A stretch of 64,000 nt of DNA, taken from the NCBI GenBank assembly GCA_018609195.1, contig JAHCSE010000001.1, forward strand, positions 9,559 to 73,558. Direction: 5' to 3'. Of this stretch, positions 2,933 through 63,544 are shown piece after piece. The stretch's first letter is position 1; each line of letters starts with the position of its first letter. The notes under the pieces are model-generated. The model did no database searches. It saw only the letters and a program-made list of their open reading frames with translations, and was not told where the DNA came from. The translations under genes and the position numbers were made by a program. This DNA is from Patescibacteria group bacterium. GTDB taxonomy: Bacteria > Patescibacteriota > Minisyncoccia > Minisyncoccales > RBG-13-36-15.

Positions 2933-2960
2933 TAGATTATTTTAGCACAAAAATTTTTAG

Positions 2961-2998
2961 AAACAAAAACGGGGCGTTCAGCTAGCTGACACCCCTTT
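2961..2998. terminator. GC hairpin terminator (bidirectional), paralogous to 3345..3385
   Basis: AAAAACGGGGCGTTCAGCTAGCTGACACCCCTTTT. Confidence 0.55.
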
Positions 2999-3018
2999 TA
3001 AGATAGGTATTTTGTGAA

Positions 3019-3246
3019 TTAGAAGGTGATGAGATAGATCTGATCCCCTCTCGGTGTTTTACAGGATTTCACTTCACGGTACTTATCGGCGAAGAATACT
3101 CGAATCCACTTTATTGCTTGGAGTGCATCATCATCAGGATTGCCTTTATTTGGCTCAGCGCTCATTGAAAGCGTTACATTGCCAGGTCTATCATGCTGGA
3201 CTACTTGAACTCGGAGCTGAACTGTCTTGTCGAACAAAACTGTCAT
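3019..3246 (-). CDS. Hypothetical 75-aa protein in a GC-rich island
   Basis: Strong SD (AAAGGAGGT, 7 nt before ATG); higher GC than surroundings; flanked by two similar GGGGCG-stem hairpins. Confidence 0.45.
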   Translation of the reverse strand: MTVLFDKTVQLRVQVVQHDRPGNVTLSMSAEPNKGNPDDDALQAIKWIRVFFADKYREVKSCKTPRGDQIYLITF

Positions 3247-3290
3247 TCCCAGAACCTCCTTTTCTCCTCTGCCAAATGATCAGGACTTAT

Positions 3291-3340
3291 GGAATTTTGT
3301 GCTGATTGTAATATAATCTATTGTTATAATTCTGTCAATA
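3291..3340. repeat. Diverged copy of the map 3'-end region (direct repeat partner of 3680..3735)
   Basis: ggaattttgtgct........tataatctatt...ataattctgtcaata vs ggaaatttgtgct........tataatctatt...ccaaatttgtcaata (about 75% identical). Confidence 0.6.
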
Positions 3341-3344
3341 AAAA

Positions 3345-3385
3345 AATGGGGCGCTCAGCCACTCGAGCGCCCCTTTCGGATGTGA
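3345..3385. terminator. GC hairpin terminator (bidirectional)
   Basis: AAAAAAATGGGGCGCTCAGCCACTCGAGCGCCCCTTT. Confidence 0.55.
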
Positions 3386-3421
3386 ACCCATTTTAGGCCT
3401 GGGTGAAGGATGAGAGATTTC

Positions 3422-3655
3422 TTATCTTCTTTTCCCGAACTCTAACTCTTTTGTTATAACAGCTATCGCTTCCTCCCTGTTTTTAGCAAATCTTATCGTC
3501 TGACCGGAGACCCAGGCAGTCCATGGGCGCTGGCGCCAAGAGTAATGCGTTATACCAGTAAAAAATTCCCTCGGGAAGTTTTGCATTTGTTCCTTAGTAG
3601 GGTCTTCAATGATTTTTATCGTCCTCCCAGCCACTATTATCTCTCCTGGCTGCAT
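3422..3655 (-). CDS. Hypothetical 77-aa protein (inserted between map and its displaced 3' end copy)
   Basis: SD-like GGAAAGGGAGAG upstream; sits between 50-nt direct repeats that both resemble the map 3' end. Confidence 0.45.
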   Translation of the reverse strand: MQPGEIIVAGRTIKIIEDPTKEQMQNFPREFFTGITHYSWRQRPWTAWVSGQTIRFAKNREEAIAVITKELEFGKRR

Positions 3656-3679
3656 TTCTCTCCCTTTCCTATCTATAAA

Positions 3680-3735
3680 ATGCAGGGCGTGGAAATTTGT
3701 GCTAACTTCCCTATAATCTATTATTCCAAATTTGT
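3680..3735. repeat. Direct repeat partner; includes the genuine map stop codon and last codons
   Basis: See 3291..3340. Confidence 0.6.
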
Positions 3736-4470
3736 CAATACTCGGCTGCCATTTTTTGTTACCGCAATTGTTTGTTCAAAATGGGCTGAAAGAGAACCAT
3801 CTTGAGTTTCATAGCCAAACCCATCTTTTGTTTTTTTAAGTTTCCAATCCCCTATTGTTACCATAGGTTCAATGCAAATTACCATACCTTCTTTTAGCTC
3901 AATTCCTTTATGTCTTTTCCCATAGTTTAAAATTTTTGGGTCCTCATGTAATTCTTTGCCAATTCCGTGGCCACAGAGTTCTCTTACTACATTGTATCCT
4001 TGAGATTCCACATATCTTTGAATGGTATTTGAGATATCCCCTATGGTATTTCCTGGCCTTACTTTTTTAATTCCTCTTTTTAAAGCCTTTTTTGTTACTC
4101 TTATTAATCGTAATGTTTCCGGATTAACTTTTCCTACTGGTAAGGTCACCGCCATATCATTGTGAAAACCCTTATATAAAATCCCCAAATCCAAAGTTAA
4201 AACATCTCCTTCTTTCAAAACTCGATTAGAAGGAACAGAATGGACAATCTCTTCGTTGATTGAACTACAGAGACAGGTTGGAAAACCTTCATATCCTTTG
4301 AAAGAACATTTCCCCCCATATTTTAAAATCAGGCTCTCTGCGAGCCTGTTCAGTTCTTTAGTCGTTATTCCCGGTCTTACTTTCCCTATCAATTCTTTCA
4401 TTATCTTGCCAAGAATTTTTCCACCTTCTGTCATGATTTGAATTTCTTCTGAGGATTTAATCGTTATCAT
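3721..4470 (-). CDS. map: Methionine aminopeptidase type I
   Basis: 249 aa; typical MetAP metal-binding residues (D..D..H..E..E context: GHGIGKELHEDP, ICIEPM). Confidence 0.9.
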   Translation of the reverse strand: MITIKSSEEIQIMTEGGKILGKIMKELIGKVRPGITTKELNRLAESLILKYGGKCSFKGYEGFPTCLCSSINEEIVHSVPSNRVLKEGDVLTLDLGILYKGFHNDMAVTLPVGKVNPETLRLIRVTKKALKRGIKKVRPGNTIGDISNTIQRYVESQGYNVVRELCGHGIGKELHEDPKILNYGKRHKGIELKEGMVICIEPMVTIGDWKLKKTKDGFGYETQDGSLSAHFEQTIAVTKNGSRVLTNLE

Positions 4471-13696: not shown

Positions 13697-14113
13697 TTAT
13701 CTTGGCAACACTTCAATTTTTTGTCCCTCTTTTATTTTGACTATTGCTTTTTTATATCCTTTTCTCCAGCCAGTTATTCTCCCTAATCTTCTCCTTTTTT
13801 GAGGAATCTTTATAATTTTAACATCTACGACCTTCACTCCATAAAGACCTTCAATTACCCTTTTAATCTCAATCTTATTAGATCTGGAATAAACTTTAAA
13901 AACGTATTGATTTTTTTTAGTCAAATCGGTAGCTTTCTCTGTGATATGGAGGGATTTTAATATTCGATAGGCATGAAGGGGAATTCCCTTTCTCTCAATT
14001 CTTTTTTCTTCTGGAGGAATTTCAGGTTCTCTCACTTCCTTCACCTTCTTTTCTGGAATTTCTCTTTTCTCTTTTTTAATTTTTTTCTTTCGAAAACGGT
14101 CTAAAATTCCCAT
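13697..14113 (-). CDS. rplW: 50S ribosomal protein L23 with N-terminal extension
   Basis: 138 aa; YVFKVYSRSNKIEIKRVIEGLYGVKV. Confidence 0.85.
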   Translation of the reverse strand: MGILDRFRKKKIKKEKREIPEKKVKEVREPEIPPEEKRIERKGIPLHAYRILKSLHITEKATDLTKKNQYVFKVYSRSNKIEIKRVIEGLYGVKVVDVKIIKIPQKRRRLGRITGWRKGYKKAIVKIKEGQKIEVLPR

Positions 14114-14132
14114 ATTGTTATTACAGAGCGAA

Positions 14133-14276
14133 GTCGCTCGCCCTCCTCCAGCCTTTGGCTGGCGGTCGCCTTCGGCGACCTTCGGGCTCGCTCTTTAGAA
14201 ACCCTCGGTTTCTAACACTCGCTTCGCTTGCTGTTTTCCTACACGGGAGAACCTATGGTTCTCCCGACCCCTCTCC
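14133..14276 (+). repeat. GC-rich structured element family A, copy A1 (overlaps the rplD 3' end)
   Basis: GTCGCTCGCCCTCCTCCAG..hairpin GGTCGCC-TTC-GGCGACC..TAGAAACC-CTC-GGTTTCTA..CTGTTTTCCTACACGGGAGAACC-TATG-GGTTCTCCCGACCCCTC. Confidence 0.8.
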
Positions 14277-14923
14277 ATTTTGGGCAGCAAATTGGGTTTC
14301 AGGAATGTCTCTTTTATTATATTTATTGATTCTTTAGGTATTAATAAATATTTGAAAGAAAGTAAGTCCAAGGGATTTAAATCTTTAGTCTGGGTAGTTT
14401 CTACTTTAGGAATATTTTTTGAGGCTCTAATGACAGCTTCCTCTTTTGTAGGAAGAGCAATCAAACAAGATGCTTTTTTTATTGGTAGATTATTTAAAAT
14501 CTCAACAATCAATTTTGTCTTTGGTTTATCTAATTTTAAAGAATCCAAAAGAACTATTAAATTTTCTTTAGCTTTCGTTGATAATACCATAAACAAAGCT
14601 TTTCTTCTCATTTTTTTAGGAATTTTTTGCTTAAAAACTCTCGTTTTTCTTGGTCCAAAAGTGATTCCTCCTCCTCGCCAGATTGGAGAACGAATAGAGC
14701 CTGCCCTCGCTCTCCCTGTTCCTTTTTGCCGCCAGGGTTTTCTTCCTCCACCCCGAACCTCAGCTCTAATTTTGGTATGAGCGATAGGAATCCTTCTATT
14801 TGCCATCTGGCTCACCACTACCTGATGTACTAAATCAGGATTGATTTTCACATCAAAAATTTCTTTTGGTAATGAAGTTTTCCCAACTTCTTTTCCTTCT
14901 TGATTGTAAGTCTTAATAAACAT
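14195..14923 (-). CDS. rplD: 50S ribosomal protein L4; the last ~27 codons are encoded by repeat element A1
   Basis: 242 aa vs ~205 typical; C-terminal MERGRENHRFSRVGKQQAKRVLETEGF is read from the GC-rich element. Confidence 0.85.
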   Translation of the reverse strand: MFIKTYNQEGKEVGKTSLPKEIFDVKINPDLVHQVVVSQMANRRIPIAHTKIRAEVRGGGRKPWRQKGTGRARAGSIRSPIWRGGGITFGPRKTRVFKQKIPKKMRRKALFMVLSTKAKENLIVLLDSLKLDKPKTKLIVEILNNLPIKKASCLIALPTKEEAVIRASKNIPKVETTQTKDLNPLDLLSFKYLLIPKESINIIKETFLKPNLLPKMERGRENHRFSRVGKQQAKRVLETEGF

Positions 14924-14932
14924 AAGTTAATA

Positions 14933-15078
14933 GCGAGGGTAAGTTTTTCAAAGAGCATCTCGGAGGCATCGCTGGCATGGTGTCCGAGCGCAACGAGGAA
15001 CAGCGACGCCGAGAGTTGAACAAAATTTTCCTCGCTGGGGAAAATTATTGTGTCTCTTTGAGGAAGCTTTGCCCGAAC
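14933..15078 (+). repeat. GC-rich structured element family B, copy B1 (rplC-rplD spacer)
   Basis: About 92% identical to 20289..20435; nested inverted repeats CTCGGAGGCRTCGCTG / CAGCGACGCCGAGAG and TCAAAGAG / CTCTTTGA. Confidence 0.8.
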
Positions 15079-15080
15079 GC

Positions 15081-15674
15081 TTATCCTCTAATTTCAAGCA
15101 GTGTTCCTTTTGCTCCTGGTACTGCTCCCTTCACTGCTAATAAATTATTTTCTGCATCAACTTTCACAACTTTTAAATTTTTCACTGTAACTCTTTCAAA
15201 GCCCATTCTGCCTGGCATTTTTTTTCCTTTAATCACTCTCTCTGGGAATGAAGAACCAACAGATCCCGGAGTTCTGGCTTCATGCTTTACTCCGTGAGAA
15301 GCTCCTCTTCCAGCAAATCCCCATCTTTTGACTACTCCGGCAAATCCTTTTCCTTTTGAGATACCAGAAATTTTCACTTTTTCTCCTTCCTCAAAAATTG
15401 AAACATCAATCTTTTGCCCTTCTTTAAAATCCTTTGCTTTATTTTTAAATTCTCTTAGAAATCTGAAAGGTTTTTTCCTCAGTGGTTTTTTAATCCGCTT
15501 TTTTTTCTCTATTTTTTTAAAACCGAGTTGAATAGCTTCGTACCTATCTTTTTCTTCGGTCTTCACTTGCGTGACAAAACAGGGGCCAGCCTCGATTACT
15601 GTTACTGACAAGACATTACCTTTTTCATCAAATATCTGGGACATTCCTAATTTTTGACCAAGAATAAACTTCAT
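15081..15674 (-). CDS. rplC: 50S ribosomal protein L3
   Basis: 197 aa; MKFILGQKLGMSQIFDEKGNVLSVTVIEAGPC. Confidence 0.9.
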   Translation of the reverse strand: MKFILGQKLGMSQIFDEKGNVLSVTVIEAGPCFVTQVKTEEKDRYEAIQLGFKKIEKKKRIKKPLRKKPFRFLREFKNKAKDFKEGQKIDVSIFEEGEKVKISGISKGKGFAGVVKRWGFAGRGASHGVKHEARTPGSVGSSFPERVIKGKKMPGRMGFERVTVKNLKVVKVDAENNLLAVKGAVPGAKGTLLEIRG

Positions 15675-15678
15675 ACTT

Positions 15679-15745
15679 TCCTACGAATTACTCTATCGCT
15701 AAGCGACTCCCCGGAGGGTTGATATTTGCGAATATACGAATAATA
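15679..15745 (-). promoter_or_regulatory. TTCGTA-repeat leader/promoter motif upstream of rplC
   Basis: Minus-strand TATTCGTATATTCGCA...GTAATTCGTAGGAAAGT-ATG. Confidence 0.45.
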
Positions 15746-15871
15746 ATTTTCCAACAAAATACCGGGCACTAACCCGGTACTTTATTTTGTAGGTTAGTTA
15801 ATTTTATAATTTTATAAATTTTTGAAATAATTATTTCTTATCATAATGAGATAAAAAATATATTCGTAGGT

Positions 15872-15900
15872 ATCTACATTTTTATTTCGATATCACCTCC
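15872..15900. repeat. 29-nt near-exact duplicate of the rpsJ 3' end (direct repeat flanking element A2)
   Basis: atctacatttttatttcgatatcacctcc vs atctacatttttatttcgatgtcaactcc at 16007..16035. Confidence 0.8.
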
Positions 15901-15996
15901 GTCGCTCCGCTCCTTAGAAACCCGCGGTTTCTAACGCTCGCTTCACTCGCTGTTTTCCTACACGGGGAGACACCCAGTCTCCCCGACCCCTTCTGT
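15901..15996 (+). repeat. GC-rich structured element family A, copy A2 (short form, immediately after the rpsJ stop)
   Basis: GTCGCTCCGCTCC..TAGAAACC-CGC-GGTTTCTA..CTGTTTTCCTACACGGGGAGAC-ACCCA-GTCTCCCCGACCCCTTC. Confidence 0.8.
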
Positions 15997-16009
15997 GCGG
16001 AGTTGCCAT

Positions 16010-16354
16010 CTACATTTTTATTTCGATGTCAACTCCGGCTGGTAAATTTAAATTCATCAGAGAATCGATCACTTTTGAGCTAGGATTTAAAATATCAATG
16101 AGTCTTTTGTGAATTCTCGTTTCAAACTGTTCTCGGGCATCTTTGTGGATAAAAGAAGATCTATTGACGGTGTATTTGTGAATTTCAGTTGGTAAGGGGA
16201 CAGGTCCCGAGACCTCCGCCCCATATCTTAAAACAGTCTCCACAATCTGCCGAGCACTGCTATCTATAACTTTGTGGTCATAGGCTTTAAGCCTTATCCT
16301 AATCCTTGGCTTAACTTCTTCCTCAATTTCTTTTGATTTTTCCTTAACTTTCAT
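16010..16354 (-). CDS. rpsJ: 30S ribosomal protein S10
   Basis: 114 aa; [14 protein letters not shown]... Confidence 0.9.
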
Positions 16355-16458
16355 CTTAAAAAGGACAAAAAATTTTTAGGTTTTAGCGTTTAGGATCTAG
16401 GTCTATTAAGTGATATTAAATTTAAAAAAACTCGACGCTAAAACCTAGGCGCTAGACC

Positions 16459-17658
16459 CTATTTCACTATCTTCGTCACCACTCCTGCCCCCACTGTCTT
16501 TCCTCCCTCTCTGATGGCAAATCTTTGTTTTTCTTCCAAGGCGATAGGAAAAATTAATTTGATCTTCAAATTAACCGTATCCCCTGGCATAACCATTTCT
16601 GTACCTTCTAGTAAAGTTACCTCTCCTGTAACATCGGTGGTCCGGAAATAAAATTGGGGTTTATAACCAGAAAAGAAAGGAGTATGCCTTCCCCCTTCTT
16701 CTTTCGTTAGCACATAGACTTCTCCTTCAAAATCAGTATGGGGGGTAATTGAACCCGGTTTAGCTAGAACCTGACCTCTTTCCACTTCTTCTTTTTTTAA
16801 TCCCCTTACTAAGATTCCAACATTATCTCCTGCTCTTCCTTCGTCAAGTATTTTGTTAAACATTTCAATACTCACAACCACAGTTTTAATAGTAGGTCGC
16901 AAACCAACCAGTTCAACTTCTTCATTAGGGTGAACTATTCCCCGTTCGATTCTGCCCGTAGCCACCGTTCCTCTCCCTGCAATAGAGAAAACATCTTCAA
17001 TAGCCATCAAAACGGGTTTATCAATTTCTCTCACTGGTTCTGGAATAAAATCATCTAAGGCTTTAACCAAATCCAAAATTGGTTTAGCTTTTTCATCATC
17101 AGGGGAACTGGCCTCCAAGGCTTTCAAAGCCGATCCTCTAATTATTGGAGTTTTATCTCCTGGGAAACCATATTTTTTCAAAAGCTCCCTGAGTTCTGAC
17201 TCCACTAAGTTAATCATCTCTTGATCTTCTACGAGATCGCATTTATTCAAGAAAATAACAATTGAAGGCAGACCAACCTGTCTTGCTAATAAAATGTGTT
17301 CTCTAGTCTGGGGCATGGGGCCATCAGGAGCAGAAACTACTAGAATTGCTCCATCCATTTGAGCAGCTCCCGTAATCATGTTTTTGATGTAATCTGCATG
17401 GCCTGGACAATCAATATGAGCGTAGTGTCTTTTCTCGGTCTCGTATTCAACGTGAGTAATATTGATAGTCAATCCTCGAGCCCTTTCTTCGGGAGCTGAA
17501 TCAATTTCCTCCACTGTCTTTTTTGAGGTCCGCAATCCTTTTAACCCCAAGATTTTCAAAATAGCGGCAGTCAGCGTAGTCTTTCCATGATCGACATGGC
17601 CAATTGTCCCTACGTTGAGATGGGGTTTTACCCTTTCAAATTTTTCTTTCTCTGCCAT
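16459..17658 (-). CDS. tuf: Elongation factor Tu
   Basis: 399 aa; [22 protein letters not shown]. Confidence 0.95.
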
Positions 17659-17847
17659 TTTGTAAGAGCTTCTAGGTTCTCGCTTCTAGGTTTTAGAAAT
17701 TTACTAATTATCTATAAGCTGAAAGCTAAAAGCTGATCTTATATTATTATCTTAGTAAACCCTGAAAAATAGTCAAGCTAGTTTACTAACTAATTTCCTT
17801 TGTATCAAAAATTCCTAACGGGGTCAATAGATTGGTTGTGGATTATC

Positions 17848-17925
17848 CTATTTCCTCTTTCCCTCAATGATCTCCTGAGTAATATTCTGAGGTACTTCTC
17901 CGTAATGGTCGAATTCCATCGTAAA
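17848..17925 (-). pseudogene. Diverged in-frame duplicate of the last ~25 codons of fusA, downstream of element A3
   Basis: Encodes ...[25 protein letters not shown] vs the genuine fusA end [25 protein letters not shown]; nucleotide identity is low at synonymous sites. Confidence 0.7.
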
Positions 17926-18097
17926 GTCGCTCCGCTCCTCCAGTCTTCGGCTGGCGCTCCCCGCCAACATCTTCGAAGTTGTGGCGGGTCGCTTCGCTCC
18001 GCTCCCCAGACACCTCTCGGTTTCTGGCGGTCGTCGCTTCGCTCCTCCCTGTTTTCCTACACGGGAAAACACCCAGTTTTCCCGACCCCTTTCTGCT
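17926..18097 (+). repeat. GC-rich structured element family A, copy A3 (between the fusA stop and its duplicated 3' end)
   Basis: GTCGCTCCGCTCCTCCAG..long hairpin CCCGCCAACATCTTCGAAGTTGTGGCGGG..CTGTTTTCCTACACGGGAAAAC-ACCCA-GTTTTCCCGACCCCTTTCTG. Confidence 0.8.
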
Positions 18098-18120
18098 TCA
18101 CTATGGAGTTTTATCTAAAA

Positions 18121-20256
18121 TTATCTCCGTTTGCCTTCTATAATTTCTTGTGCGATGTTCCCTGGCACTTCACCGTAGTGATCAAACTCCATAGTAAACG
18201 TTCCTCGGCCTTCGGTCATCGATCGCAAAGCTGTGGCATAACCAAACATCTCAGCCAGAGGAACTTTAGCTGAAATTATTTTCAAATTTAACCTATCTTT
18301 TGTTTCTTCAATCTTCCCCCTCCTCGCTCCTAAATCCCCAATAGTATCTCCAAAAAATTCAGAAGGAATAATTACTTCTAATCTCATTATCGGTTCAAGT
18401 AAAATAGGTTTTGCTCTTTTGGCGGCCGTTTGCAAAGCAGCAGATGCAGCTATCTTGAAAGCAAATTCTGAGGAATCAACCTCATGATAGGAACCATCAT
18501 AAAGAGTCACTTCGATGTCAACCATAGGATAGCCTGCAGTTATCCCTTTTTCCATAGCTTCCTTCACTCCTTTTTTCACAGCGGGGATAAATTCTTTTGG
18601 GATGATTCCTCCTTTAATCTCGTCGATAAATTCAAATCCCTCTCCTCGTGTTTTGGGCCGAATTTTCAAGAAAACATGACCATATTGGCCTCTGCCGCCT
18701 GATTGTCTAATATATTTTCCTTCAGCTGAAGTTTCCTCTTTTATTGTTTCTTTATAGGCAACCTGAGGTCTTCCGGATGAAGCTTCCACCTTAAATTCTC
18801 TTCTCATTCGATCATTAATTATCTCTAAATGGAGCTCCCCCATTCCTGAGATAATAGTTTCTCCCGTTTCTAAATCACTTTTAATTTTAAAAGTGGGGTC
18901 TTCCTCAGCCAATCTTTTCAAAGCTAAACTCATTTTCTCTTGGTCGGCCTTCGTTTTCGGTTCAATTCGAATGGAAATGACAGGTTCTGGAAAGGTAATT
19001 TTTTCTAAGACAATGGGGTTATCAGGGTCACAAAGAGTATGACCAGTACTAGTTTTTTTTAATCCAACCGTAGCCCCAATATCTCCAGCGAAAAACTCTT
19101 GTACTTCCTCACGATCTGCCGCATGCATCCTTAAAATTCTCCCAATTCTCTCTTTCTCGCCCGTAGTTGCATTTAATACATAAGAACCTCTTTTTAAGCT
19201 ACCTGCATAAACTCGGAAATAATTTAAAGTTCCAACATAAGGATCAGCAGCAGATTTAAAAACCAAAGCGGAAAATGATTCTGAATCTAAAACTTTTCTT
19301 TCAATTTCCTGACCATTTCGAGGATCAACTCCTCTCACCGGAGGTAAATCCAAGGGGCTAGGCAAAAAATTCACAATTCCATCTAAGAGAGGCTGAATTC
19401 CTTTATTTCTCAAAGCTGATCCACAAAATACCGGGATGAGTTTGTAGGAAATTGTGGCTTTTCTCAATACTTCTCTCAATTCATTGATTGAAATTTCCTT
19501 TTTGGCTAAGTATTTCTCTAAAAGTTTCTCATCTTCAGCTGCAATTTTCTCCACTAATTTTTCTCGCCACTCTTTAGCGATCTTGCGCAAATTTTCAGGT
19601 ATCTCTTCTTCAACAACATTCTGGCCAAAGTCACCTTCAAATTTTAAGGCTCGCATTGTAAAGAGATCAATCACTCCTTCAAAATTTTCCTCGCTACCAA
19701 TTGGTAATTGAAGAACCACCGCCTGGGGAGATAATTTTTCCCAAATTGATTGCAAGCTCTTTTCAAAAGAAGCTCCTGTCCTATCCATTTTATTGATAAA
19801 GCAAATTCTGGGAACAGAAAATCTATCTGCTTGATGCCATACCGTCTCAGATTGAGGTTCTACTCCTGCTACTCCATCGAAAATCACTACCGCCCCATCC
19901 AAAACTCGCAAAGATCTTTGTACTTCCGCTGTAAAATCAATATGGCCAGGAGTATCAATAATGTTTATTCGATACTCATCTTTTTTGCTTTTTTCTTTGG
20001 ATTGACCGGGGGCGGTGTGTGGGTGATAGGTGGATGGAGTCCAAAAACAAGTAGTGGCTGCAGCTGTAATAGTAATTCCCCTTTCTTTTTCTTGAATCAT
20101 CCAATCCATTATTGCCTCCCCTTCATGAACTTCTCCAATTTTATGAGAAATTCCAGTATAGAAAAGCACCCGCTCAGTAACGGTTGTTTTCCCAGCATCG
20201 ATATGAGCAATAATACCAATATTGCGAGTTCGTTCTATTGGATACAAACGAGGCAT
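18121..20256 (-). CDS. fusA: Elongation factor G
   Basis: 711 aa; AHIDAGKTT, full EF-G domain set. Confidence 0.95.
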
Positions 20257-20288
20257 AATTTGTAGAAGCGGATTTACGCGGATCTAAA

Positions 20289-20435
20289 GCGAGGGTAAGC
20301 TTCTCAAAGAGCATCTCGGAGGCGTCGCTGGCAAGGTGTCCGAGTAAAGCGAGGAACAGCGACGCCGAGAGTTGAACAAAATTTTCCTCGCTGGGAAAAA
20401 TTATTGTGTCTCTTTGAGGGGGCTTTGCCCGAGCG
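20289..20435 (+). repeat. GC-rich structured element family B, copy B2 (fusA 5' side)
   Basis: Near-identical to B1 (14933..15078). Confidence 0.8.
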
Positions 20436-20452
20436 AATCACCAAGCCAAATG

Positions 20453-20612
20453 GTCGCTCGCCCTCCTCCAGCGCAGAGCGCTGGCGGACGCCTTTGGCGT
20501 CCTTCGGGCTCACTCCCCAGACACCTCTCGGTTTCTGGCGCTCCTTCGCTTTCGCTCAGTCACTGTTTTCCTATACGGGGAAACACCCAGTTTCCCCGAC
20601 CCCTTTCTGCCA
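20453..20612 (+). repeat. GC-rich structured element family A, copy A4 (abuts the rpsG stop)
   Basis: GTCGCTCGCCCTCCTCCAG..GGACGCC-TTT-GGCGTCC (compensatory vs A1)..CTGTTTTCCTATACGGGGAAAC-ACCCA-GTTTCCCCGACCCCTTTCTG. Confidence 0.8.
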
Positions 20613-20619
20613 CTTTGCG

Positions 20620-21087
20620 TTACCACGCAAAGTGGGCAAAAGCTCTATTCGCCTCTGCCATCCTGTGAGTATTTTCTTTCTTTTTCACTGCCCAGCCAGT
20701 GTTATTTGCGGCTTCTATCATTTCTTCAGCCAATTTCTCTCTCATTGGTTTTCCTTTTCTTGATTTGGCAGCTTGGATAATCCAACGCATAGCTAAAGTT
20801 AGCCTTCTTTCCCCTTTCACTTCTCTCGGAACCTGATAGGTAGCACCTCCAATTCTTTTCGCTTTAACCTCAAGTAAGGGGGAGGCATTTTTCAGAGCCT
20901 GATCAAAAACTTCCAAGGGGTCTTTTTTCGTTTTTCCTTTAATTATATCAAAGGCCTGATAAACAATTCTTCTCGCCAGCATCTTTTTCCCTCGCCGCAT
21001 TACCTGATTGATAAACTTTGATACAATGATGTTATTGTAAACCGGGTCAGATGTAATTTCCCTTTTTTCTTTTTTCTTCCTCCTCAT
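20620..21087 (-). CDS. rpsG: 30S ribosomal protein S7
   Basis: 155 aa; ends AFAHFAW. Confidence 0.9.
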
Positions 21088-26219: not shown

Positions 26220-26294
26220 TGATTTTATTATAACGAACTATGTTCGATATATCACGCTGCGCGTGCTATAGGTTAGTTTATTGTGATTGAAAAC

Positions 26295-26317
26295 AAAAAA
26301 CCGCCTTCTTGGCGATT
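26295..26317 (-). terminator. Conserved terminator hairpin repeat (copy 1 of 5)
   Basis: Minus strand AAUCGCC-AAGAA-GGCGGUUUUUU. Confidence 0.65.
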
Positions 26318-26704: not shown

Positions 26705-26718
26705 TATTTCATTCTATC

Positions 26719-26742
26719 AAAAAACCGCCTTCTTGGCGATTT
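26719..26742 (-). terminator. Conserved terminator hairpin repeat (copy 2)
   Basis: AAAAACCGCCTTCTTGGCGATTTTTT. Confidence 0.65.
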
Positions 26743-27479: not shown

Positions 27480-27725
27480 TTTTCTCTTCCCTCCTTAACT
27501 GCAGATGTATTTTAAGTTAATTTAGATATTTGTAAAGAGTTAGGTTATATAGATTTTCACAAAAACAATCATTCAATAAAGAGTGGCGTTTTATTTTTTT
27601 AGGCTCCCAGACGGCGACTCAAACCCTTAAACCCTCACCTCCAACTCAAATTTAAGCCAATTATTGGACCATTGTCTATGGTCTCTCAGATTACGAACGG
27701 TGGTCTACTAATGGTTATTAAGGAT

Positions 27726-27747
27726 AAAAACCGCCTTCTTGGCGATT
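27726..27747 (-). terminator. Conserved terminator hairpin repeat (copy 3)
   Basis: AAAAACCGCCTTCTTGGCGATT. Confidence 0.65.
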
Positions 27748-28917: not shown

Positions 28918-28933
28918 ATATATAATTCTAACA

Positions 28934-28956
28934 AAAAAACCGCCTTTTTGGCAATT
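28934..28956 (-). terminator. Conserved terminator hairpin repeat (copy 4)
   Basis: AAAAAACCGCCTTTTTGGCAATT. Confidence 0.6.
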
Positions 28957-35679: not shown

Positions 35680-35830
35680 AAAAATGTGTCCTCCTCCGTT
35701 AAAACTTTGGAGGACATGGATGGCATTCTGACTTTCACAGTTACGGCATAGTCCCGGATTTCCTGCCCGCATCGCTATACGAAGTATTGCAGGCGGGTCA
35801 CCGGAGTTCCCCATCCGTTTTCAAAGTCCG
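35680..35830 (-). ncRNA. Candidate cobalamin riboswitch in the 5' leader of the B12-uptake/nrdJ gene string
   Basis: Minus-strand GGGGAACTCCGGTGACCCGCC ... GGAAATCCGGGACTATGCCGTAACTGTGA resembles GGGAAnnnGGTGa / AAnTCC / CCGCnACnGTnA cores; GC-rich and structured. Confidence 0.4.
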
Positions 35831-51941: not shown

Positions 51942-52799
51942 CTACGGCAGAATTTGAAGTAGCCGTTCGCTTAACGTGATTACAATATTAAAGGCACCCA
52001 TAAGGATGAGGAAAAAGCCTCCTAATAACCTGATAGGTTTCATTTGCCTAACCAATGTTTGTGTCAAGGATTCTCTCGCAAATCCAGCTATAACTGAAAG
52101 TGATATCATGAGCAAAGCCATAACAGTACTTGCAAGTATAAAGACAGTTAAAGCAGAGGATAACCCGCCGCCACTCAAGGCAAAAAGAGAAAGTCCACCA
52201 ACTAAGGGAGCTACACAACCTATCCCAGCTAAAGTATATCCAAATCCAAACATAAAAAATTTACCAAACATTCCGCGGCCTCTTTTCGATATTTCAGTGC
52301 CAAGATGTTCCACTTTTCCTAAACTGACGAATACTTTATTGGTTACCAATGCCAACCCAAGTCCTATCAACAAAACACCAATGATTCGTCTAAACCATAG
52401 CAGTGCCGTTGTTCCTGGTTTAATAAAATTAATAAATGTTTCTCCCAAAAGTCCGATGACAATTCCGAAAAGAATCATAAACGCTAAAAGACCTAATGCA
52501 GCATAGAATCCATTACGAATCAGTTTTCCTCGAGAAAGTACTCGCCCTCCCCCACTCACCACCTCTGTTTGATAAACCAAATAAGATGGGAGGATCGGTA
52601 AAACACACGGATTAAAGAAAGCCGCTATCCCGACACCTAAGCCAGCGACAATAAGCGTAACCAAGGATATATCCGATGGTTTCATAAAACTTTTTGTAGC
52701 CGAAAAGAGGTAAAATCCGATAACTGCTATAACAATAAAAAACACTGCTAAGCCGATGTAAAGTAGAACAGGATGAGTTTTTGTCTGAGTATTATTCAT
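51942..52799 (-). CDS. CcdA/DsbD-family membrane protein (paralog)
   Basis: 285 aa; FNPCVLPILPSY, GIGCVAPLVGG. Confidence 0.75.
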   Translation of the reverse strand: MNNTQTKTHPVLLYIGLAVFFIVIAVIGFYLFSATKSFMKPSDISLVTLIVAGLGVGIAAFFNPCVLPILPSYLVYQTEVVSGGGRVLSRGKLIRNGFYAALGLLAFMILFGIVIGLLGETFINFIKPGTTALLWFRRIIGVLLIGLGLALVTNKVFVSLGKVEHLGTEISKRGRGMFGKFFMFGFGYTLAGIGCVAPLVGGLSLFALSGGGLSSALTVFILASTVMALLMISLSVIAGFARESLTQTLVRQMKPIRLLGGFFLILMGAFNIVITLSERLLQILP

Positions 52800-52844
52800 A
52801 GGTACTATTTGAAGTTATAAGCTATTAGTTAATCATTTTAGAAC

Positions 52845-52855
52845 TCGACCTTTGA
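52845..52855 (-). promoter_or_regulatory. AAAGGTCGAG motif (site 7), ~45 nt upstream of CcdA 51942..52799
   Basis: CTCGACCTTTG. Confidence 0.4.
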
Positions 52856-52896
52856 TTTCTTTTTCTTTAACTAATGCCCTCGTGGTTATAATAGGT

Positions 52897-53064
52897 TTAT
52901 TGATGCCTGTCCTGTAGGACGTGCTTATTAATTTCGAGATTGCAGCTTTTGTGTTCTCTGCACCAAGCCTCACATTTCTCTGCCCACTCTTCATCTTCAT
53001 ACTTATATCCACATTCCTCGCATTGATATAATTCTTTGTTTTCTTGTTCTATTTTCTTAACCAT
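52897..53064 (-). CDS. Small Cys-rich protein (55 aa), paralog of 57515..57700
   Basis: Hand-translated MVKKIEQENKELYQCEECGYKYEDEEWAEKCEAWCREHKSCNLEINKHVLQDRHQ. Confidence 0.5.
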   Translation of the reverse strand: MVKKIEQENKELYQCEECGYKYEDEEWAEKCEAWCREHKSCNLEINKHVLQDRHQ

Positions 53065-53332
53065 TTTGGGGAGATAATTCTTTTAATTTTTCTACTAACT
53101 TATTTTTATCAAGCCCTCCAACTGCAAAAAGCTCTCCATTAACGACAATACCAGGCGAAACCATAATACCGTATTCCTGAACCATTTTCTGGCCTTGTTC
53201 AGAAAACATATCAATGTATTCAATTTCCGCATCTGGAAATTGGGGTTTAATTTCTTCTTCTAAAGTTTTCTTTGCCGTGGCACAGTGACTACACCCTGGT
53301 GTTGAAAGTTCTTGAATTTTTATCTTATTCAT
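53057..53332 (-). CDS. Thioredoxin/glutaredoxin-like protein
   Basis: 91 aa; STPGCSHCATAK. Confidence 0.65.
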   Translation of the reverse strand: MNKIKIQELSTPGCSHCATAKKTLEEEIKPQFPDAEIEYIDMFSEQGQKMVQEYGIMVSPGIVVNGELFAVGGLDKNKLVEKLKELSPQNG

Positions 53333-53882
53333 ATTCTCTTAAGGCTTGGAAAGAATTATCTAATATATTATTGACCTTATCCCAATATCCTTGACTGATA
53401 GCATCATTCAACTCCTCTTCAATAAATACTTCGAGAGAGACTCCTCGTTCTGCAAGTCCTTGAGCGAGTATGCTTAATTTGAATTCAATTTCTTGAGGAA
53501 TTTCTGTTACTTGCCCCCGAGAAGTAGTGCCGGTATATGCCTGGTCAGCAAGGATACGAGCAGAATATGCTTGAAAAATTGAAGCATCTATAATTTGTTC
53601 TTTCGTAATGCTCGTAGAATCATATATTACCCAACCAGAATCAGTTCTCGGGTCAGCATCTGCTTGCACAACTCCTGGTATGCCCAATAAGGAATTTACC
53701 ACACTTGAACGACATCCCAGACAAAACATATTGTTAATCTCCAAATCCACCTTCCGAAGGTTTGCTTGGACAACATCTCCTCCAAGAGAAGTATCCTTAC
53801 TGCTGCCACCGAATAGAAACACTCCTCCGATAATTGCCCCCACAATAATTATTGACAATGGTATGAGAAGACTCTTATTCAT
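53325..53882 (-). CDS. Secreted heavy-metal-associated (HMA)-like domain protein
   Basis: 185 aa; signal anchor; NMFCLGCRSSV resembles GMxCxxC. Confidence 0.5.
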   Translation of the reverse strand: MNKSLLIPLSIIIVGAIIGGVFLFGGSSKDTSLGGDVVQANLRKVDLEINNMFCLGCRSSVVNSLLGIPGVVQADADPRTDSGWVIYDSTSITKEQIIDASIFQAYSARILADQAYTGTTSRGQVTEIPQEIEFKLSILAQGLAERGVSLEVFIEEELNDAISQGYWDKVNNILDNSFQALREYE

Positions 53883-53905
53883 AGAGGTTTAATAATAGTG
53901 TAAGT

Positions 53906-54200
53906 CTACTACATCCCCCAAATAAAAAATATAGTAAACATCCACATGCTTGTTAAAACTAATATTCCGCCTGCAACCTTTTTCATTGTTTCTGTTTTTC
54001 CAATCATTGTTTTGAAAAAAGTGTGCTTACCCTGTCCGATAAATACGGTAACTGCAATAAGAAATAGGGCTTGAAATTTAAAAACCCGCAGCTCGTTCCA
54101 TGACTTCAGCCACTTGTTCTTTTGTAATGTTTTTTGCTATTTTGATTACACTTTCGCAGCAGGTGCAATCTTTTATATGGATTATAGTTAGCGTTGTCAT
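53906..54200 (-). pseudogene. Gene remnant: ~170-nt duplicate of the 3' end of the CcdA-like gene 55387..56214, plus a 40-codon HMA-like ORF
   Basis: 53906..54075 about 93% identical to 55387..55560 with a 26-nt deletion; upstream ORF MTTLTIIHIKDCTCCESVIKIAK... Confidence 0.55.
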
Positions 54201-54235
54201 AATATGTGTTTAATTAGTTATTATTTTTCTATACA

Positions 54236-55357
54236 TTACCTTACTGAAGTATATTCTCCGAGCAGACCTTTTTTCGATAATACTATCTGCCATTGCTGGG
54301 CTTTTCGAGCCCGGAAGGATCCTGCAGCCGAGAGAAGATAGTATTTCCACATTCGATAAAATCTATCCCCATATTTAGTGCGCAATTCATTCCAGTGCGA
54401 ATTAAAGTTGTCCCACCAGTGCATAAGAGTCGTATCGTAGTGAGTACCAAAGCTATGCCAGTCCTCAAGAACAAACAGCCCTTCCGCTGCCTTTGCGATC
54501 TGTTTGTATGACGGAAGCATTGTATTCGGAAAAATATATTTCAAATACCACGGATCCAATCCAATTGAGGACGTACTAACACCTCCTGCGTCTAAGAGAA
54601 AAAGTCCATCATCGCTAAGCATGGAGTGAACCTTTTCCATGTAGAGTCGGTAATTTTTGTATCCGACATGCTCAAACATCCCTAACGAAACAATATGGTC
54701 AAACGTTCCATCAATATCACGATAATCCTGTAGACGAGTTTCTGTCGGCAAATCACCGCGCTGTGCGTTCGCATAGTCCGCCTGCTCTTTCGACACCGTA
54801 ATCCCTACACATTGAGCCCCGTAGCGCTCAGCAGCAAAGTTGATAAAGCTGCCCCACCCTGAGCCAATATCGAGAATTCGATCGCCTTTTTGTATTCCAA
54901 GTTTCCTGCACGTAAGGTCGAGTTTTAATTCCTGTGCCTCGTCAAGTGTTTGCGCATTCTTCCAGTACCCACATGTGTAGGTCAGTCGTTTGTCGAGCAT
55001 TGCCTTAAATAAGTCATTGCCAATGTCATAGTGATCTTCTCCAACCTGAAACGCGCGCAAACGCGGCATGTTGATGAGCTTTGCCTTGAGATAATTCCAT
55101 ACCAATACTGGATTTATGCGTGCCTGTTTTTCAAGTCTCGAGCGAAGAACTTTGTTAAAAAATTCATCAAGCTCTTTCACGTCCCACCAGCCGTCCATAT
55201 ACGACTCACCAAGCCCGAGAGAGCCCTGGCTTAGGACACGACCGTAGAATTTCTCGTTGTGCACTTGAATATCCCATGGTCGATCGCCATTGATTGTAAT
55301 ACCTGCCTCCGAAGCTAATTGTTCAATAACTACTTTAGGTGTAAACGGCATATTCAA
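54236..55357 (-). CDS. Cyclopropane-fatty-acyl-phospholipid synthase family SAM methyltransferase
   Basis: 373 aa; ILDIGSGWGSF SAM motif; noticeably higher GC than neighbours. Confidence 0.85.
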   Translation of the reverse strand: MNMPFTPKVVIEQLASEAGITINGDRPWDIQVHNEKFYGRVLSQGSLGLGESYMDGWWDVKELDEFFNKVLRSRLEKQARINPVLVWNYLKAKLINMPRLRAFQVGEDHYDIGNDLFKAMLDKRLTYTCGYWKNAQTLDEAQELKLDLTCRKLGIQKGDRILDIGSGWGSFINFAAERYGAQCVGITVSKEQADYANAQRGDLPTETRLQDYRDIDGTFDHIVSLGMFEHVGYKNYRLYMEKVHSMLSDDGLFLLDAGGVSTSSIGLDPWYLKYIFPNTMLPSYKQIAKAAEGLFVLEDWHSFGTHYDTTLMHWWDNFNSHWNELRTKYGDRFYRMWKYYLLSAAGSFRARKAQQWQIVLSKKGLLGEYTSVR

Positions 55358-55386
55358 TTATTTTTCTACAAACGTTAGAAAGATTA

Positions 55387-56214
55387 CTACATTCCCCATA
55401 TAAAGAATATAGCAAACATCCACATACTTGTTAAGACTAATATTCCGCCTGCGACCTTTTTCATTGTTTCTGTTTTTCCAATCATTGTTTTGAAAAACGT
55501 GTGCTTTCCCTGCCCGATAAATACGGTAACTGCAATAAGAAATAATGCTTGAGCAAGACTAAAAATCAGAAAGCTTGAAATACTGACTAAAAATTCTCCA
55601 CCCACAAGAGGGAAGAATACCAATGGTAAAAAGATGGGCAAGAAACACATCAATCCTCCAGCCCCATATACAATGCCAAAGCCAAAAAGATTAACGCTTT
55701 GTGAACGCCCACGACTCATTTTATTAACTTTATCTCTGAAGGAAGAAAGAAAATTAATATTGATAGATTTGCCACGCAAAAAAGCAATGCCGATAAACAA
55801 AATGAGAATTGCAACGGCAAATTTCAATTGGCTAGCATAGGAAGCCAGAAATGTCCCGATAGTCGCAAAAAGTAAACCAAGGACAATAAAGAAGCTGAAT
55901 ACACCGAGTGAGGCAATAATGCCAAGCTTGATACTTCTTTTAATTGGCGAGTGTTTTTCTTCTCCCTCGTCCATTCCAAGATAAAAAGACATATAAGCCG
56001 GAAGCACTCCTAAGGAACAGGGTCCAAAATTCACAATAAGCCCGGCAATGAAAGCAAAGCCCAAAATACCAAGCGTGCTAAAGGCAGCAAGATTGCTTGT
56101 CTGGGGAATAATAATCCCATACAGAACTTTCCAGCCAAAGATACTGGCAACCACAAAAATAGTAAGTGCTGCCAATATCCAAATGCTATAAGTTACTATT
56201 TTTGACTTAATCAT
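55387..56214 (-). CDS. CcdA/DsbD-family membrane protein (start at internal MIKSK; ORF extends to 56286)
   Basis: NFGPCSLGVLPAY, GGLMCFLPIF. Confidence 0.7.
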   Translation of the reverse strand: MIKSKIVTYSIWILAALTIFVVASIFGWKVLYGIIIPQTSNLAAFSTLGILGFAFIAGLIVNFGPCSLGVLPAYMSFYLGMDEGEEKHSPIKRSIKLGIIASLGVFSFFIVLGLLFATIGTFLASYASQLKFAVAILILFIGIAFLRGKSININFLSSFRDKVNKMSRGRSQSVNLFGFGIVYGAGGLMCFLPIFLPLVFFPLVGGEFLVSISSFLIFSLAQALFLIAVTVFIGQGKHTFFKTMIGKTETMKKVAGGILVLTSMWMFAIFFIWGM

Positions 56215-56218
56215 AAAA

Positions 56219-57369: not shown

Positions 57370-57453
57370 AGTATGAATTATATTTCATATGAAACTTATG
57401 TCAAGTGTATTTTTCCACAAGAGTTCTCATTGTTTTGTTTTGTATAGAGATAT

Positions 57454-57476
57454 AAAAAACCGCCTTCTCGACGATT
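57454..57476 (-). terminator. Conserved terminator hairpin repeat (copy 5)
   Basis: AAAAAACCGCCTTCTCGACGATT. Confidence 0.55.
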
Positions 57477-57514
57477 GATTAAGATTTCAGCCTACCCTGT
57501 TGCTCCCTATTTCT

Positions 57515-63346: not shown

Positions 63347-63386
63347 TCTCTTTTATTGTATTGGAATTTTAATTCCGATACAACAC

Positions 63387-63510: not shown

Positions 63511-63544
63511 GGTCTATGTTCTTATACCGCATTTTATTCACAAA

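Follow-up and report, generated by a model that had tools for sequence, protein, structure and literature searches.

We analysed the 3′ end of fusA, the gene encoding elongation factor G (EF-G), in a 64,000-nt stretch of DNA from a Patescibacteria group bacterium (contig JAHCSE010000001.1, positions 9,559 to 73,558). This whole stretch is called the window (W in Table 1), and all coordinates refer to it; loci compared with the window carry L-numbers (e.g., L162, L004) and proteins carry P-numbers. The fusA product is identical to a protein for which the Pfam domains GTP_EFTU, EFG_III, EFG_IV and EFG_C are on record. Read along the minus strand, fusA is followed by a small structured element, a second version of its own last 25 codons, an intergenic spacer and tuf (16459-17658). 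The two fusA ends, hereafter copy 1 (in use) and copy 2 (behind the element), are separated by 195 nt of GC-rich hairpins, with a GC content of about 60% compared to 37.7% for the window. Copy 1 and the hairpins together form an insertion of 273 nt (17926-18198), with its insertion point directly before the FTMEF codons of fusA. A replacement tail in different codons, situated on the gene side of the element, keeps fusA whole, and the original tail, now behind the element, no longer belongs to the gene.

The initial annotation of this DNA had described an in-frame duplicate of the 25 end codons of fusA, with a nearly conserved protein sequence and altered synonymous positions. Re-translation bears this out. 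Copy 1 and copy 2 are identical at 22 of 25 amino acids (BLASTP E = 6e-17 for this single comparison) and at 54 of 78 nucleotides, and the stop codon is kept at the same position. The copies start 273 nt (91 codons) apart, and hence the duplicate is in frame. About 19 differences are synonymous and four are non-synonymous (pN = 0.066, Nei-Gojobori), and by the same method the synonymous differences outnumber the synonymous sites. The longest runs of identity do not exceed 5 nt; near their start, the two copies share only TTTAC and ATGGA (5 nt each).

Relatives without the insertion indicate which of the two ends is ancestral. The closest relative found, L162, was reached via a protein cluster at 90% identity (P0002). 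Its fusA gene is 89.5% identical to that of the window at the nucleotide level, and its rpsG/fusA and fusA/tuf sites are both empty. The fusA end of L162 matches copy 2 at 71 of 78 nt and copy 1 at 58 of 78 nt. Against L162, 6.8% of positions mismatch in the 1122 nt of fusA ahead of the repeat and 25.6% in copy 1 (Fisher P = 7.6e-7); similarity shifts at or close to the point where the duplicated segment starts. The spacer of L162 is about 93% identical to that of the window, and aligns from the first base after the copy 2 stop. The empty fusA site of L078 is also collinear with copy 2. Since copy 2 is collinear with both the fusA end and the spacer of L162, copy 2 is the displaced native end and 17926-18198 is the insertion. 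The comparison with insertion-free relatives, proposed in the initial annotation, thus identifies copy 2, by sequence alignment, as the ancestral fusA end that was displaced by the insertion.

The same fusA codon is also occupied by the element in L002 and in the sister lineage L004. A tree built from the C-terminal 299 residues joins the window to L004 (filled), with L078 (empty) as the next branch. L002 is placed in another clade of this tree, surrounded by empty sites. Neither a second full fusA end nor the core motif was present in any of 80 related fusA-tuf junctions from metagenomes. A hypothetical empty-allele EF-G, consisting of the fusA body with the copy 2 tail, was not found by exact look-up in the protein collection. 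Two of the 80 junctions, L085 and L104, contain short GC-rich inserts with a few duplicated stop-proximal codons. These inserts are hairpins of 20-50 nt at the ends of rpsG and fusA (L085, about 1466-1560 and 3780-3870; L104, about 3880-3940). Some contain GAGCGAAGCGAG, and on both sides they are bordered by duplicates of the last codons and the stop that differ synonymously, so that a single hairpin module may be able to move by itself. The fusA-tuf spacer of L164 holds a different insert (455-610), delimited by a perfect 21-nt inverted repeat, CCCCCACACCATAACGAGTTT ... AAACTCGTTATGGTGTGGGGG.

We compared the divergence of the two fusA ends with a decay model, in which the copies start identical, copy 1 accepts synonymous changes only and copy 2 drifts freely. 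This model predicts about 13 amino-acid differences on average, and 0 of 20,000 runs reproduced the data. Neutral decay is thus rejected, and the substitution pattern indicates coding-sequence evolution of both copies; this agrees with the earlier argument that a fresh, identical target-site duplication does not fit. Coding-like divergence of the copies was also found in L002, L034 and L085. At conserved degenerate positions, the number of identical codons was 3 of 21 in the window and 2 of 22 in L002, where about 10 were expected (analytic P = 7e-4 and 5e-5; empirical P of about 0.03 and 0.004, respectively). The mean fraction of identical codons in 477 real orthologue pairs was 0.44 ± 0.14. 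These low counts imply that the two fusA copies are at least as different as orthologues from distant lineages. In GC content at third codon positions (GC3), both copies deviate from the fusA body.

Natural fusA ends of the copy 1 type do exist, e.g., in P0011, which matches at 24 of 25 amino acids. P0011 is encoded in L164, a locus without such an element. The native end of L164 is identical to copy 1 at 64 of 78 nt (82%) and to copy 2 at 58 of 78 nt, and it contains exactly the sequence to which an inverted segment of the window element, described below, is complementary. The 369 nt ahead of the end in L164 are 71.8% identical to the window, and the excess of the end over the gene body has P = 0.07. 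In L004, the first 60 nt of the two copies are identical and only the last 18 nt of copy 1 differ from copy 2. These 18 nt match L164 at 16 positions, including the codon pair AGG CGT, and match the own copy 2 of L004 at 11 positions. The comparisons offer moderate support for copy 1 having been brought in with the element from another lineage.

The core of the element comprises about 185 nt. It is GC-rich, non-coding and ends in GAGCGAC; in the window copies and in most loci inspected by eye, the ..GCGAC end adjoins copy 2. The consensus order is module M1 (GGGGTC, hairpin P1, CCCGTRTAGGAAAACAG), a variable hairpin, module M2 (YYAGAAACC-loop-GGTKTCTRR), optional hairpins and ..GAGCGAC. Structure statistics for the family were obtained from an alignment of 79 cores. 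Hairpin P1 is paired in 99.6% of cases, with exchanges between AU and GC pairs at four positions. The two outer pairs of M2 covary, with 69 of 71 in Watson-Crick pairing and six pair combinations. Furthermore, the purine tract directly 5′ of GGGGTC is a position-by-position mirror of the P1 purine arm, and covaries with it (alignment A2, columns 7-10 versus 20-23 and 34-37; boundary at 18090/18089 in the window). The mirror match was 92% in register but only 45-67% when slid, and none of 500 shuffles reached the observed value. A separate shuffle test yielded 256 matches versus 166 ± 9 expected. Such mirror covariation is the pattern of a fold-back purine-motif triple helix (G.G-C, A.A-T), which we put forward as a prediction only. 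The motif GCGNAGC, which as DNA forms very stable mini-hairpins, occurs 57 times on the element strand versus 6 times on the opposite strand and 3.5 times in shuffles. The folding z-scores of the 273-nt insert against shuffles were -4.6 (RNA) and -5.5 (DNA). The structural evidence thus defines a functional strand, which may act as DNA or as RNA.

An inverted segment between the fusA stop and the core had been overlooked in the initial annotation. This segment, called antiX, is the reverse complement of X, a stretch at the start of copy 1, and the X/antiX stem is present in the minimum-energy folds of both RNA and DNA. At fusA, the pair X/antiX is ACTATGGAGTTT/AAACTCCATAGT in the window versus TTACGATGGAGTT/AACTCCATCGTAA in L002. 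At rpsG, it is CCACTTTGCG/CGCAAAGTGG in the window versus CCATTTTGCC/GGCAAAATGG in L004. The changes in X between the window, L004 and L002 are synonymous and are matched by changes in antiX. These compensatory changes imply that the stem has been maintained after insertion. No open reading frame (ORF) in the insert is consistent among copies. Translation of copy 2 through the element was considered and rejected as a general account: this frame has 63 open codons in the window, is blocked in L004 with 3 codons, and remains short in L002 and L009. The features of the element and its sister copies are collected in Table 1.

Table 1. Features of the fusA insertion and its sister copies in the window
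Feature	Position	Strand	Basis
fusA (EF-G) coding sequence as now read, 711 aa	18121-20256	-	ORF list and translation
Copy 1: in-use last 25 codons of fusA plus TAA, divergent replacement end	18121-18198	-	Comparisons with L162 and L164
X = ACTATGGAGTTT, part of copy 1 that pairs with antiX	18184-18195	-	Exact 12-nt complement of 18100-18111
Spacer of 9 nt between fusA stop and antiX	18112-18120	-	Aligns with the spacer of L004
antiX = AAACTCCATAGT, reverse complement of the copy 1 start	18100-18111	-	Compensatory changes in W, L004 and L002
Purine-rich linker, ending in a mirror of the P1 5′ arm; possible triplex third strand	18090-18099	-	Mirror covariation
Core module M1: GGGGTC, hairpin P1, then CCCGTGTAGGAAAACAG	18049-18089	-	Five matches in the window versus 0 expected
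Core module M2, hairpin CAGAAACCGAGAGGTGTCTGG	18006-18026	-	Covariation of outer pairs
3′ modules: further GC-rich hairpins with GCGNAGC motifs	17926-18005	-	Alignment of window copies
Conserved 3′ terminus GGAGGAGCGGAGCGAC	17926-17941	-	Alignment of window copies
Copy 2: displaced ancestral last 25 fusA codons plus TAG	17848-17925	-	Comparison with empty sites of L162 and L078
Native fusA-tuf spacer with promoter-like sites	17659-17847	-	About 93% identical to the spacer of L162
Sister copy rpsG/fusA	20438-20634	-	Orthologous copy in L004; site empty in L162
Sister copy rpsJ/rplC: rpsJ end (16008-16036), antiX (15998-16010), core, second end (15872-15900)	15872-16036	-	
Sister copy between rplD and rplW, alpha subfamily	14111-14287	-	rplD frame enters the element
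Fifth copy; constant 5′ hairpin also on four copies in MAG CAYGBM01	63356-63521	+	Core match

An exact-pattern search of one genome per bacterial or archaeal species (species representatives) detected the core at 77 loci, nearly all in metagenome-assembled genomes (MAGs) of Patescibacteria. These included Paceibacteria, Nealsonbacteria, Niyogibacteria and Staskawiczbacteria, among others. The core motif was absent from 2.9 million viral contigs of IMG/VR. Rfam scans, run at gathering thresholds and also at a permissive E <= 5 over 13900-20700, gave no match over the elements, including introns and ribozymes, and a full-text literature search found no description of the family. Hence, the elements form a family of small, strand-specific structured elements that is almost confined to Patescibacteria and seemingly undescribed.

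Many copies share a common layout of target-end copy 1, antiX, covarying hairpin core ending in GAGCGAC, and target-end copy 2. Flanks were evaluated in 70 testable copies. A direct flanking repeat scoring >= 30 was present in 24 of them (null expectation 0.24%), and in 33 (null expectation 3%) the segment adjoining the core on its 5′ side, antiX, complements upstream sequence over at least about 10 bp. In the repeat-bearing copies that were inspected, the upstream repeat is paired by antiX at its start or close to it. AntiX fitted copy 1 better than copy 2 in 21 cases, versus two cases of the reverse, and it often spans the junction position of the uninterrupted target. The flanking repeats range from about 15 to 112 nt in length. 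Some are perfect or nearly so (66 of 66 nt in L009; 112 nt with one mismatch in L007; also L035 and L059), and others are strongly diverged (window fusA, L002, L034 and L065). The 5′ junctions lack conserved nucleotides, the junctions of different copies have no core in common, and no recombinase core site of the kind that the initial annotation suggested looking for was recognised at fusA.

The targeted protein-coding genes include the ends of fusA, rpsJ, rpsG, rplD and an rpmG-like gene, and also, on the opposite strand, the 5′ end and upstream region of an EF-G-like gene. In addition, the elements target the T-arm or T-loop of many tRNA genes, i.e., their 3′ halves. In 10 of the 11 tRNA-linked loci that were checked, an intact tRNA gene upstream of the element (ARAGORN) was accompanied by a matching 3′ fragment downstream. 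The elements occur in both orientations, with about two thirds co-oriented with their neighbours, and sequence subtypes are confined to individual genomes. In L035 (1900-2500), one tRNA gene is followed by a tandem pair of elements, and a separate copy of the tRNA 3′ end comes after each of them; this arrangement is consistent with re-insertion into a regenerated target. Inserts of 10-16 nt split the T-loop of displaced tRNA fragments in L021, L023 and L062 (GGTTC[TAGGAGCGTAGCGACG]GAATCC), and related T-loop inserts were seen in L015, L026 and L029. A cDNA origin of the tRNA 3′ fragments was considered, as CCA follows copy 2 in L015, L021/L062 and L026, where the intact upstream tRNA gene is followed by C only. 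CCA is absent from the remaining tRNA cases, and the pattern was not significant.

With modest confidence, we interpret the fusA arrangement as a target-restoring insertion of 273 nt in the 3′ end of the gene, made by a member of a non-autonomous family that carries the replacement end as a cassette. The initial annotation had likewise favoured a target-restoring insertion at a gene 3′ end, as in tRNA-gene islands. The empty site of L162 and the use of tRNA 3′ halves as targets support this part. The further suggestion that the element arrived with its own copy of the gene end has only moderate support (82% identity to the native end of L164, P = 0.07, donor not found). From 5′ to 3′, the insert consists of the 25 replacement codons plus stop, the 9-nt spacer, the 12-nt antiX and the hairpin core of about 185 nt ending in GAGCGAC. 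Its mobilisation would depend on an enzyme encoded elsewhere. As the cassette would travel with a replacement gene end, insertion inside an essential gene would be harmless. The X:antiX duplex reproduces the uninterrupted target sequence, and would probably take part in the choice of site or in strand joining. The nucleic acid would probably act single-stranded, given the strand-specific GCGNAGC mini-hairpins, the predicted purine triplex and the strong folding.

Genes near the elements were surveyed by ORF clustering across the 77 loci, using 8 kb of each. The recurrent neighbours were housekeeping genes only (EF-G in nine loci, S7 and others). The lack of copy-consistent coding capacity and of a recurring mobile-element gene within 8 kb of 77 copies suggests that the element is non-autonomous. 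The only lead to an enzyme was a 241-aa IS200-like Y1_Tnp protein (PF01797, E = 5e-10, above the curated cut-off) at 3083-3808 of L052, an element-bearing Nealsonbacteria genome. It lies 2.7 kb from a copy of the element, without flanking hairpins. A similar Y1 transposase fragment was seen at the end of L150. In the window, no Y1 transposase was detected by tblastn with approximate transposase sequences as queries. Small proteins with an N-terminal helix-turn-helix (HTH) and a LYWGEG motif occur among tRNA genes in four of the 77 loci (L058 1431-2106, L061 about 1214-1890, L045 and L069). The motif resembles LAGLIDADG by eye; in Pfam, these proteins gave weak HTH matches only and no endonuclease match.

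Several observations weigh against a carried cassette. First, no recombinase, transposase or reverse transcriptase was found in or next to the element, and none is recurrent across the 8-kb loci. Second, near-identical cores in one genome carry different antiX segments (window fusA versus rpsG), and hence retargeting must be easy; a simple cassette leaves the acquisition of a new target, i.e., of antiX plus replacement end, unexplained. Four mechanisms considered by reasoning only failed to account for the whole architecture: target-primed reverse transcription with template jumps, fold-back synthesis of antiX, IS608-type insertion 3′ of a guide-paired site, and P-nucleotide-like hairpin opening. 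Third, some flanking repeats are nearly identical and include non-coding flank (rpsJ with 27 of 29 nt, L007, L009, L035 and L059), which looks like duplication of resident sequence at insertion. Fourth, no true donor of copy 1 was found; the best match is the L164 end (82%, P = 0.07 over the gene body). Fifth, the first 60 nt of the two copies in the L004 mosaic are identical, so that an extra step of gene conversion is needed. Sixth, copies 1 and 2 share a rare Gly9, seen in 8 of about 120 related ends, which hints at a common local ancestry. Finally, the changes in copy 2 since L162, as read from the alignment, avoid sites where the copies already differ; a combinatorial estimate calculated by hand gives this non-overlap a probability of about 0.003. 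The shared Gly9 and the non-overlap keep alive a scenario in which two ends of local origin were driven apart in place.

In that scenario, which we regard as rather unlikely, a long and variable stretch of resident target was duplicated in situ together with the creation of antiX, and the in-use copy was then rapidly recoded at synonymous sites. The driver could be selection against slippage or recombination between the repeats, and the downstream copy would stay near-ancestral. Besides Gly9 and the copy 2 changes confined to positions where copy 1 retains the ancestral state, in situ duplication would accommodate the long near-identical repeats elsewhere, their variable length, and an antiX tailored to each target even among near-identical cores of one genome. 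It would also suit the fusA copies having fewer identical codons than unrelated orthologues. However, it needs an approximately six-fold synonymous acceleration in a single 78-nt segment with a sharp boundary. Moreover, selection for dissimilarity should hit the unconstrained copy 2 more readily, whereas by our own count copy 2 changed at a normal rate and mostly synonymously. A further difficulty is the resemblance to L164: its native end is closer to copy 1 than the gene bodies are to each other, and the L004 tail matches it at 16 of 18 positions.

Alternatively, both ends could be in use. The segment from copy 1 to GAGCGAC would then be removed in some molecules or cells, at the RNA level or by reversible excision of DNA, and both tails would be translated and subject to selection at the protein level; the circle junction would join GAGCGAC to TTTACTATGG. 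The retention of frame, stop codon and conservative residues in each copy fits this idea, as do the synonymous-only divergence in L002 and L085 and the compensatory upkeep of X:antiX pairing. L162 could even be a product of precise excision, as the window and the more distant L004 are both filled at rpsG and fusA. We nevertheless consider the idea improbable. The element matches no known ribozyme or intron family, the 5′ junctions lack conserved nucleotides, and identity runs of at most 5 nt make a poor substrate for excision. No ORF runs into copy 2 in L004 or L002. In addition, the displaced rpsG end has lost a Phe in the window and in L004, and its Trp codon is now a stop in L004, from which it follows that displaced ends do decay.

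The element might also be a fixed cis-regulatory RNA or DNA structure of the ribosomal-protein operon, with a role in processing, stability or termination and with the duplicated codons as a by-product. Repetitive extragenic palindromic (REP) elements act in these processes in other bacteria. In the window, four of the five copies occupy junctions between genes of the str/S10 operon in sense orientation, the family is predominantly co-oriented with its neighbours, and the structure is strong and covaries. Yet close relatives differ in whether the element is present (the site is empty in L162, in L078 and in 80 other junctions), unrelated loci such as tRNA genes and a GTPase gene (at its 5′ end) carry copies, in both orientations, and there are tandem copies (L035) and genome-specific subtypes. 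A regulatory origin thus seems very improbable, but the element may have acquired a secondary, domesticated function.

An assembly artefact, i.e., a wrong join through the repeated core that links two fusA ends from different molecules or strains, is hardly credible. Short-read assemblies of the same organism do break inside the core. However, ENA ERZ25043468 and Logan SRR5189788 each reproduce both halves of the junction independently at 99.9-100% identity, one running from fusA through copy 1 and antiX into the core and the other from the core through copy 2 and the spacer into tuf, with contigs ending inside the core. Longer contigs of 0.2-1 Mb carry fusA and tuf, and presumably span the element. 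The join is required by the conserved fusA-tuf order, since fusA runs directly into copy 1 and the native spacer and tuf come after copy 2. The same arrangement occurs in two other MAGs (L004 and L002), and the two ends differ by 31%, which exceeds variation between strains. The possibility that assembly error explains the repeat, raised in the initial annotation, is therefore not supported; the junction halves and the gene order of L162 back the join.

A diversity-generating retroelement with template and variable repeats at the 3′ end of its target gene, suggested by the common occurrence of such retroelements in bacteria of the Candidate Phyla Radiation (CPR) and by a gene 3′-end repeat that adjoins GC-rich hairpins, was rejected as virtually impossible because the substitution pattern contradicts it (by our own count, base A at 9 of 24 differing sites in copy 2 and at 8 of 24 in copy 1, hence not adenine-specific; changes of every type occur), the differences are synonymous rather than diversifying, the targets are EF-G, ribosomal proteins and tRNAs, and no reverse transcriptase recurs near the elements.

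The target-restoring insertion that we favour has much in common with integrative elements at the 3′ ends of genes and tRNA genes, such as islands, prophages and integrative conjugative or mobilisable elements (ICE/IME). In these elements, too, the gene is completed by sequence on the element side, the displaced end forms a direct repeat at the distal junction that is collinear with empty sites, T-arms or T-loops of tRNA genes serve as targets, and the same sites are used recurrently across lineages. In contrast, they are kilobases long and have their own tyrosine or serine integrase, whereas the fusA insertion has 273 nt and is non-coding. Their att repeats are near-identical with a crossover core, whereas the repeats found here may be fully re-coded and are accompanied by antiX.

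The physical form resembles REP elements and bacterial interspersed mosaic elements (BIMEs), mobilised by REP-associated tyrosine transposases (RAYTs), and also IS200/IS605 miniatures. These are likewise short, GC-rich, strand-specific, multi-copy hairpins at the ends of operon genes, mosaic and non-autonomous. The left end of IS608 comprises a cleavage site, a linker, a guide and a hairpin, and the site is read by base pairing with the guide. The order X, spacer, antiX and hairpin equals that of the IS608 left end. A GTAG-like motif beside P1 is a further REP/IS200-like trait, and the Y1_Tnp gene of one element-bearing genome (L052) may be connected with the element. REP, IS200 and IS605 elements, however, neither duplicate their target nor carry gene ends, whereas repeats of 15-112 nt flank at least 24 of the 70 copies here, and guide pairing in IS608 spans 4-5 nt, compared to 8-17 nt here. 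MITEs, i.e., miniature inverted-repeat transposable elements, differ in that their terminal inverted repeats are conserved and their duplication is short and constant in length, against a locus-specific 5′ end, a GAGCGAC 3′ end and a variable repeat here.

AT-rich mitochondrial genomes harbour GC clusters and double-hairpin elements, and an insertion in Allomyces atp6 carries a foreign C-terminus. These, too, are GC-rich hairpins in an AT-rich genome, and the atp6 case shares the in-frame foreign end and the displacement of the original one. They differ in being organellar; the atp6 insertion has an endonuclease ORF, and GC clusters have short fixed duplications and lack an inverted segment resembling a guide. 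Casposons insert at tRNA genes or at the 3′ end of the gene for archaeal EF-2, a homologue of fusA, and make longer target duplications than typical transposases. They measure 8-20 kb, with terminal inverted repeats (TIRs), Cas1, a polymerase and identical duplications of about 14-15 bp; Cas1, TIRs and a fixed repeat were not found here. In integron attC and CTX attP sites (XerCD), an intrastrand duplex likewise reproduces the recombination site in a strand-specific manner, but this is one fixed site with a known recombinase, whereas each copy here has its own target sequence. Rickettsia palindromic elements are also small repeats tolerated inside coding genes; they insert in frame without restoration of the gene end or duplication. 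Judged by sequence features, the elements would be functionally like 3′-end integrative elements and physically like REP/BIME or mitochondrial GC elements, and they fail defining features of each.

A new mechanism, marked by the guide-like antiX and the predicted triplex core, is a real possibility. Going further, we tentatively entertain the idea that CPR bacteria harbour a novel class of miniature mobile DNA, which combines antiX-guided targeting, a folded single strand with a triplex core and a built-in re-coded gene end. In such a class, antiX may read the uninterrupted site and be re-derived for each target. The two ends may be kept as dissimilar as possible in nucleotides and equivalent in protein, either because this blocks recombination between repeats or because both are used as the element can leave. 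CPR genomes are tiny and gene-dense, and to our knowledge few mobile elements have been described in these bacteria. The family sits in some of the most conserved genes (EF-G, ribosomal proteins and tRNAs) without damage, and is apparently widespread in Patescibacteria. At 0.2 kb and without a protein, it is a compact form of the target-restoring strategy of large integrative elements, joined here with the guide-like inverted target copy and the covariation that predicts a triple helix. If the guide idea is true, the family would amount to a naturally occurring, programmable insertion system of minimal size. On the practical side, the elements break short-read assemblies at ribosomal operons, and duplicated gene ends and extended ORFs (e.g., L4) mislead CPR annotation and the extraction of phylogenomic markers.

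The window contains exactly five copies of the element, versus 0 expected by chance; the copy away from the str/S10 operon lies at 63.4 kb on the other strand. The copy between rpsG and fusA adds a parallel that is absent from the initial annotation. It comprises the rpsG end (CACTTTGCGTGGTAA, 20620-20634), antiX CGCAAAGTGG (20610-20619), the core and the displaced end CATTTGGCTTGGTGA (20438-20452). At rpsJ, the near-exact repeat noted earlier holds up, with the first copy one base away from the position given for it then. A native-type flank follows its second copy, and about 20 relatives have an empty site.

The copy behind rplD belongs to a distinct subfamily, alpha, whose 5′ arm (AACATCCCAYATCGGAAG) is conserved and whose 3′ tail, TRACTTnGTAnTACCACTATG, closes with the start codon of the next gene. 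rplD (14195-14923) has no stop before this element; its frame runs about 30 codons into it (...KPNLLPKMERGRENHRFSRVGKQQAKRVLETEGF*), and the alpha-type copy is thus translated as a C-terminal extension of L4. The same read-in of rplD occurs in L051 (6000-6300), with the displaced native end (ETFLK*) after the element. At the rplD junction of L163, similarity to the window is lost partway through rplD.

A further parallel had been proposed at map (3291-3340 versus 3680-3735). It turned out to be a repeated promoter-like sequence, TTGACA-17-TATAnn, without a GC-rich element. The region after map (2960-3740, minus strand) holds two tandem cassettes, each with a near-identical TTGACA-17-TATAnn, a small ORF and a GC-rich hairpin plus T-run. 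The ORFs encode 77 aa (3422-3655) and 75 aa (3019-3246), are mutually unrelated and have no Pfam match; a terminator scan scored only the first of the two hairpins. A second type of repeat, of 148 nt and 92% identity, lies directly upstream of rplD and fusA (14932-15079 and 20288-20435, minus strand). Its start (TTCGCTCGG...) also follows the rpsG stop in L082 and L084-L086, and L162 has only its last 40 nt or so. It could be another mobile element or a leader RNA, and has no credible match in Rfam.

Elsewhere in the window, an AdoCbl-II (cobalamin) riboswitch at 35713-35827 (minus strand) exceeded the Rfam gathering score. The region 52400-57700 contains repeats of 70-173 nt with 70-92% identity (e.g., 53902-54074 versus 55380-55552), which suggests that a block of genes, among them those for small ArsR-like regulators and membrane proteins, was duplicated. 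A short conserved hairpin, AAAAACCGCCTTCTTGGCGATT, occurs five times (26286-26317, 26710-26741, 27716-27747, 28925-28956 and 57445-57476) and looks like a shared terminator on the other strand.

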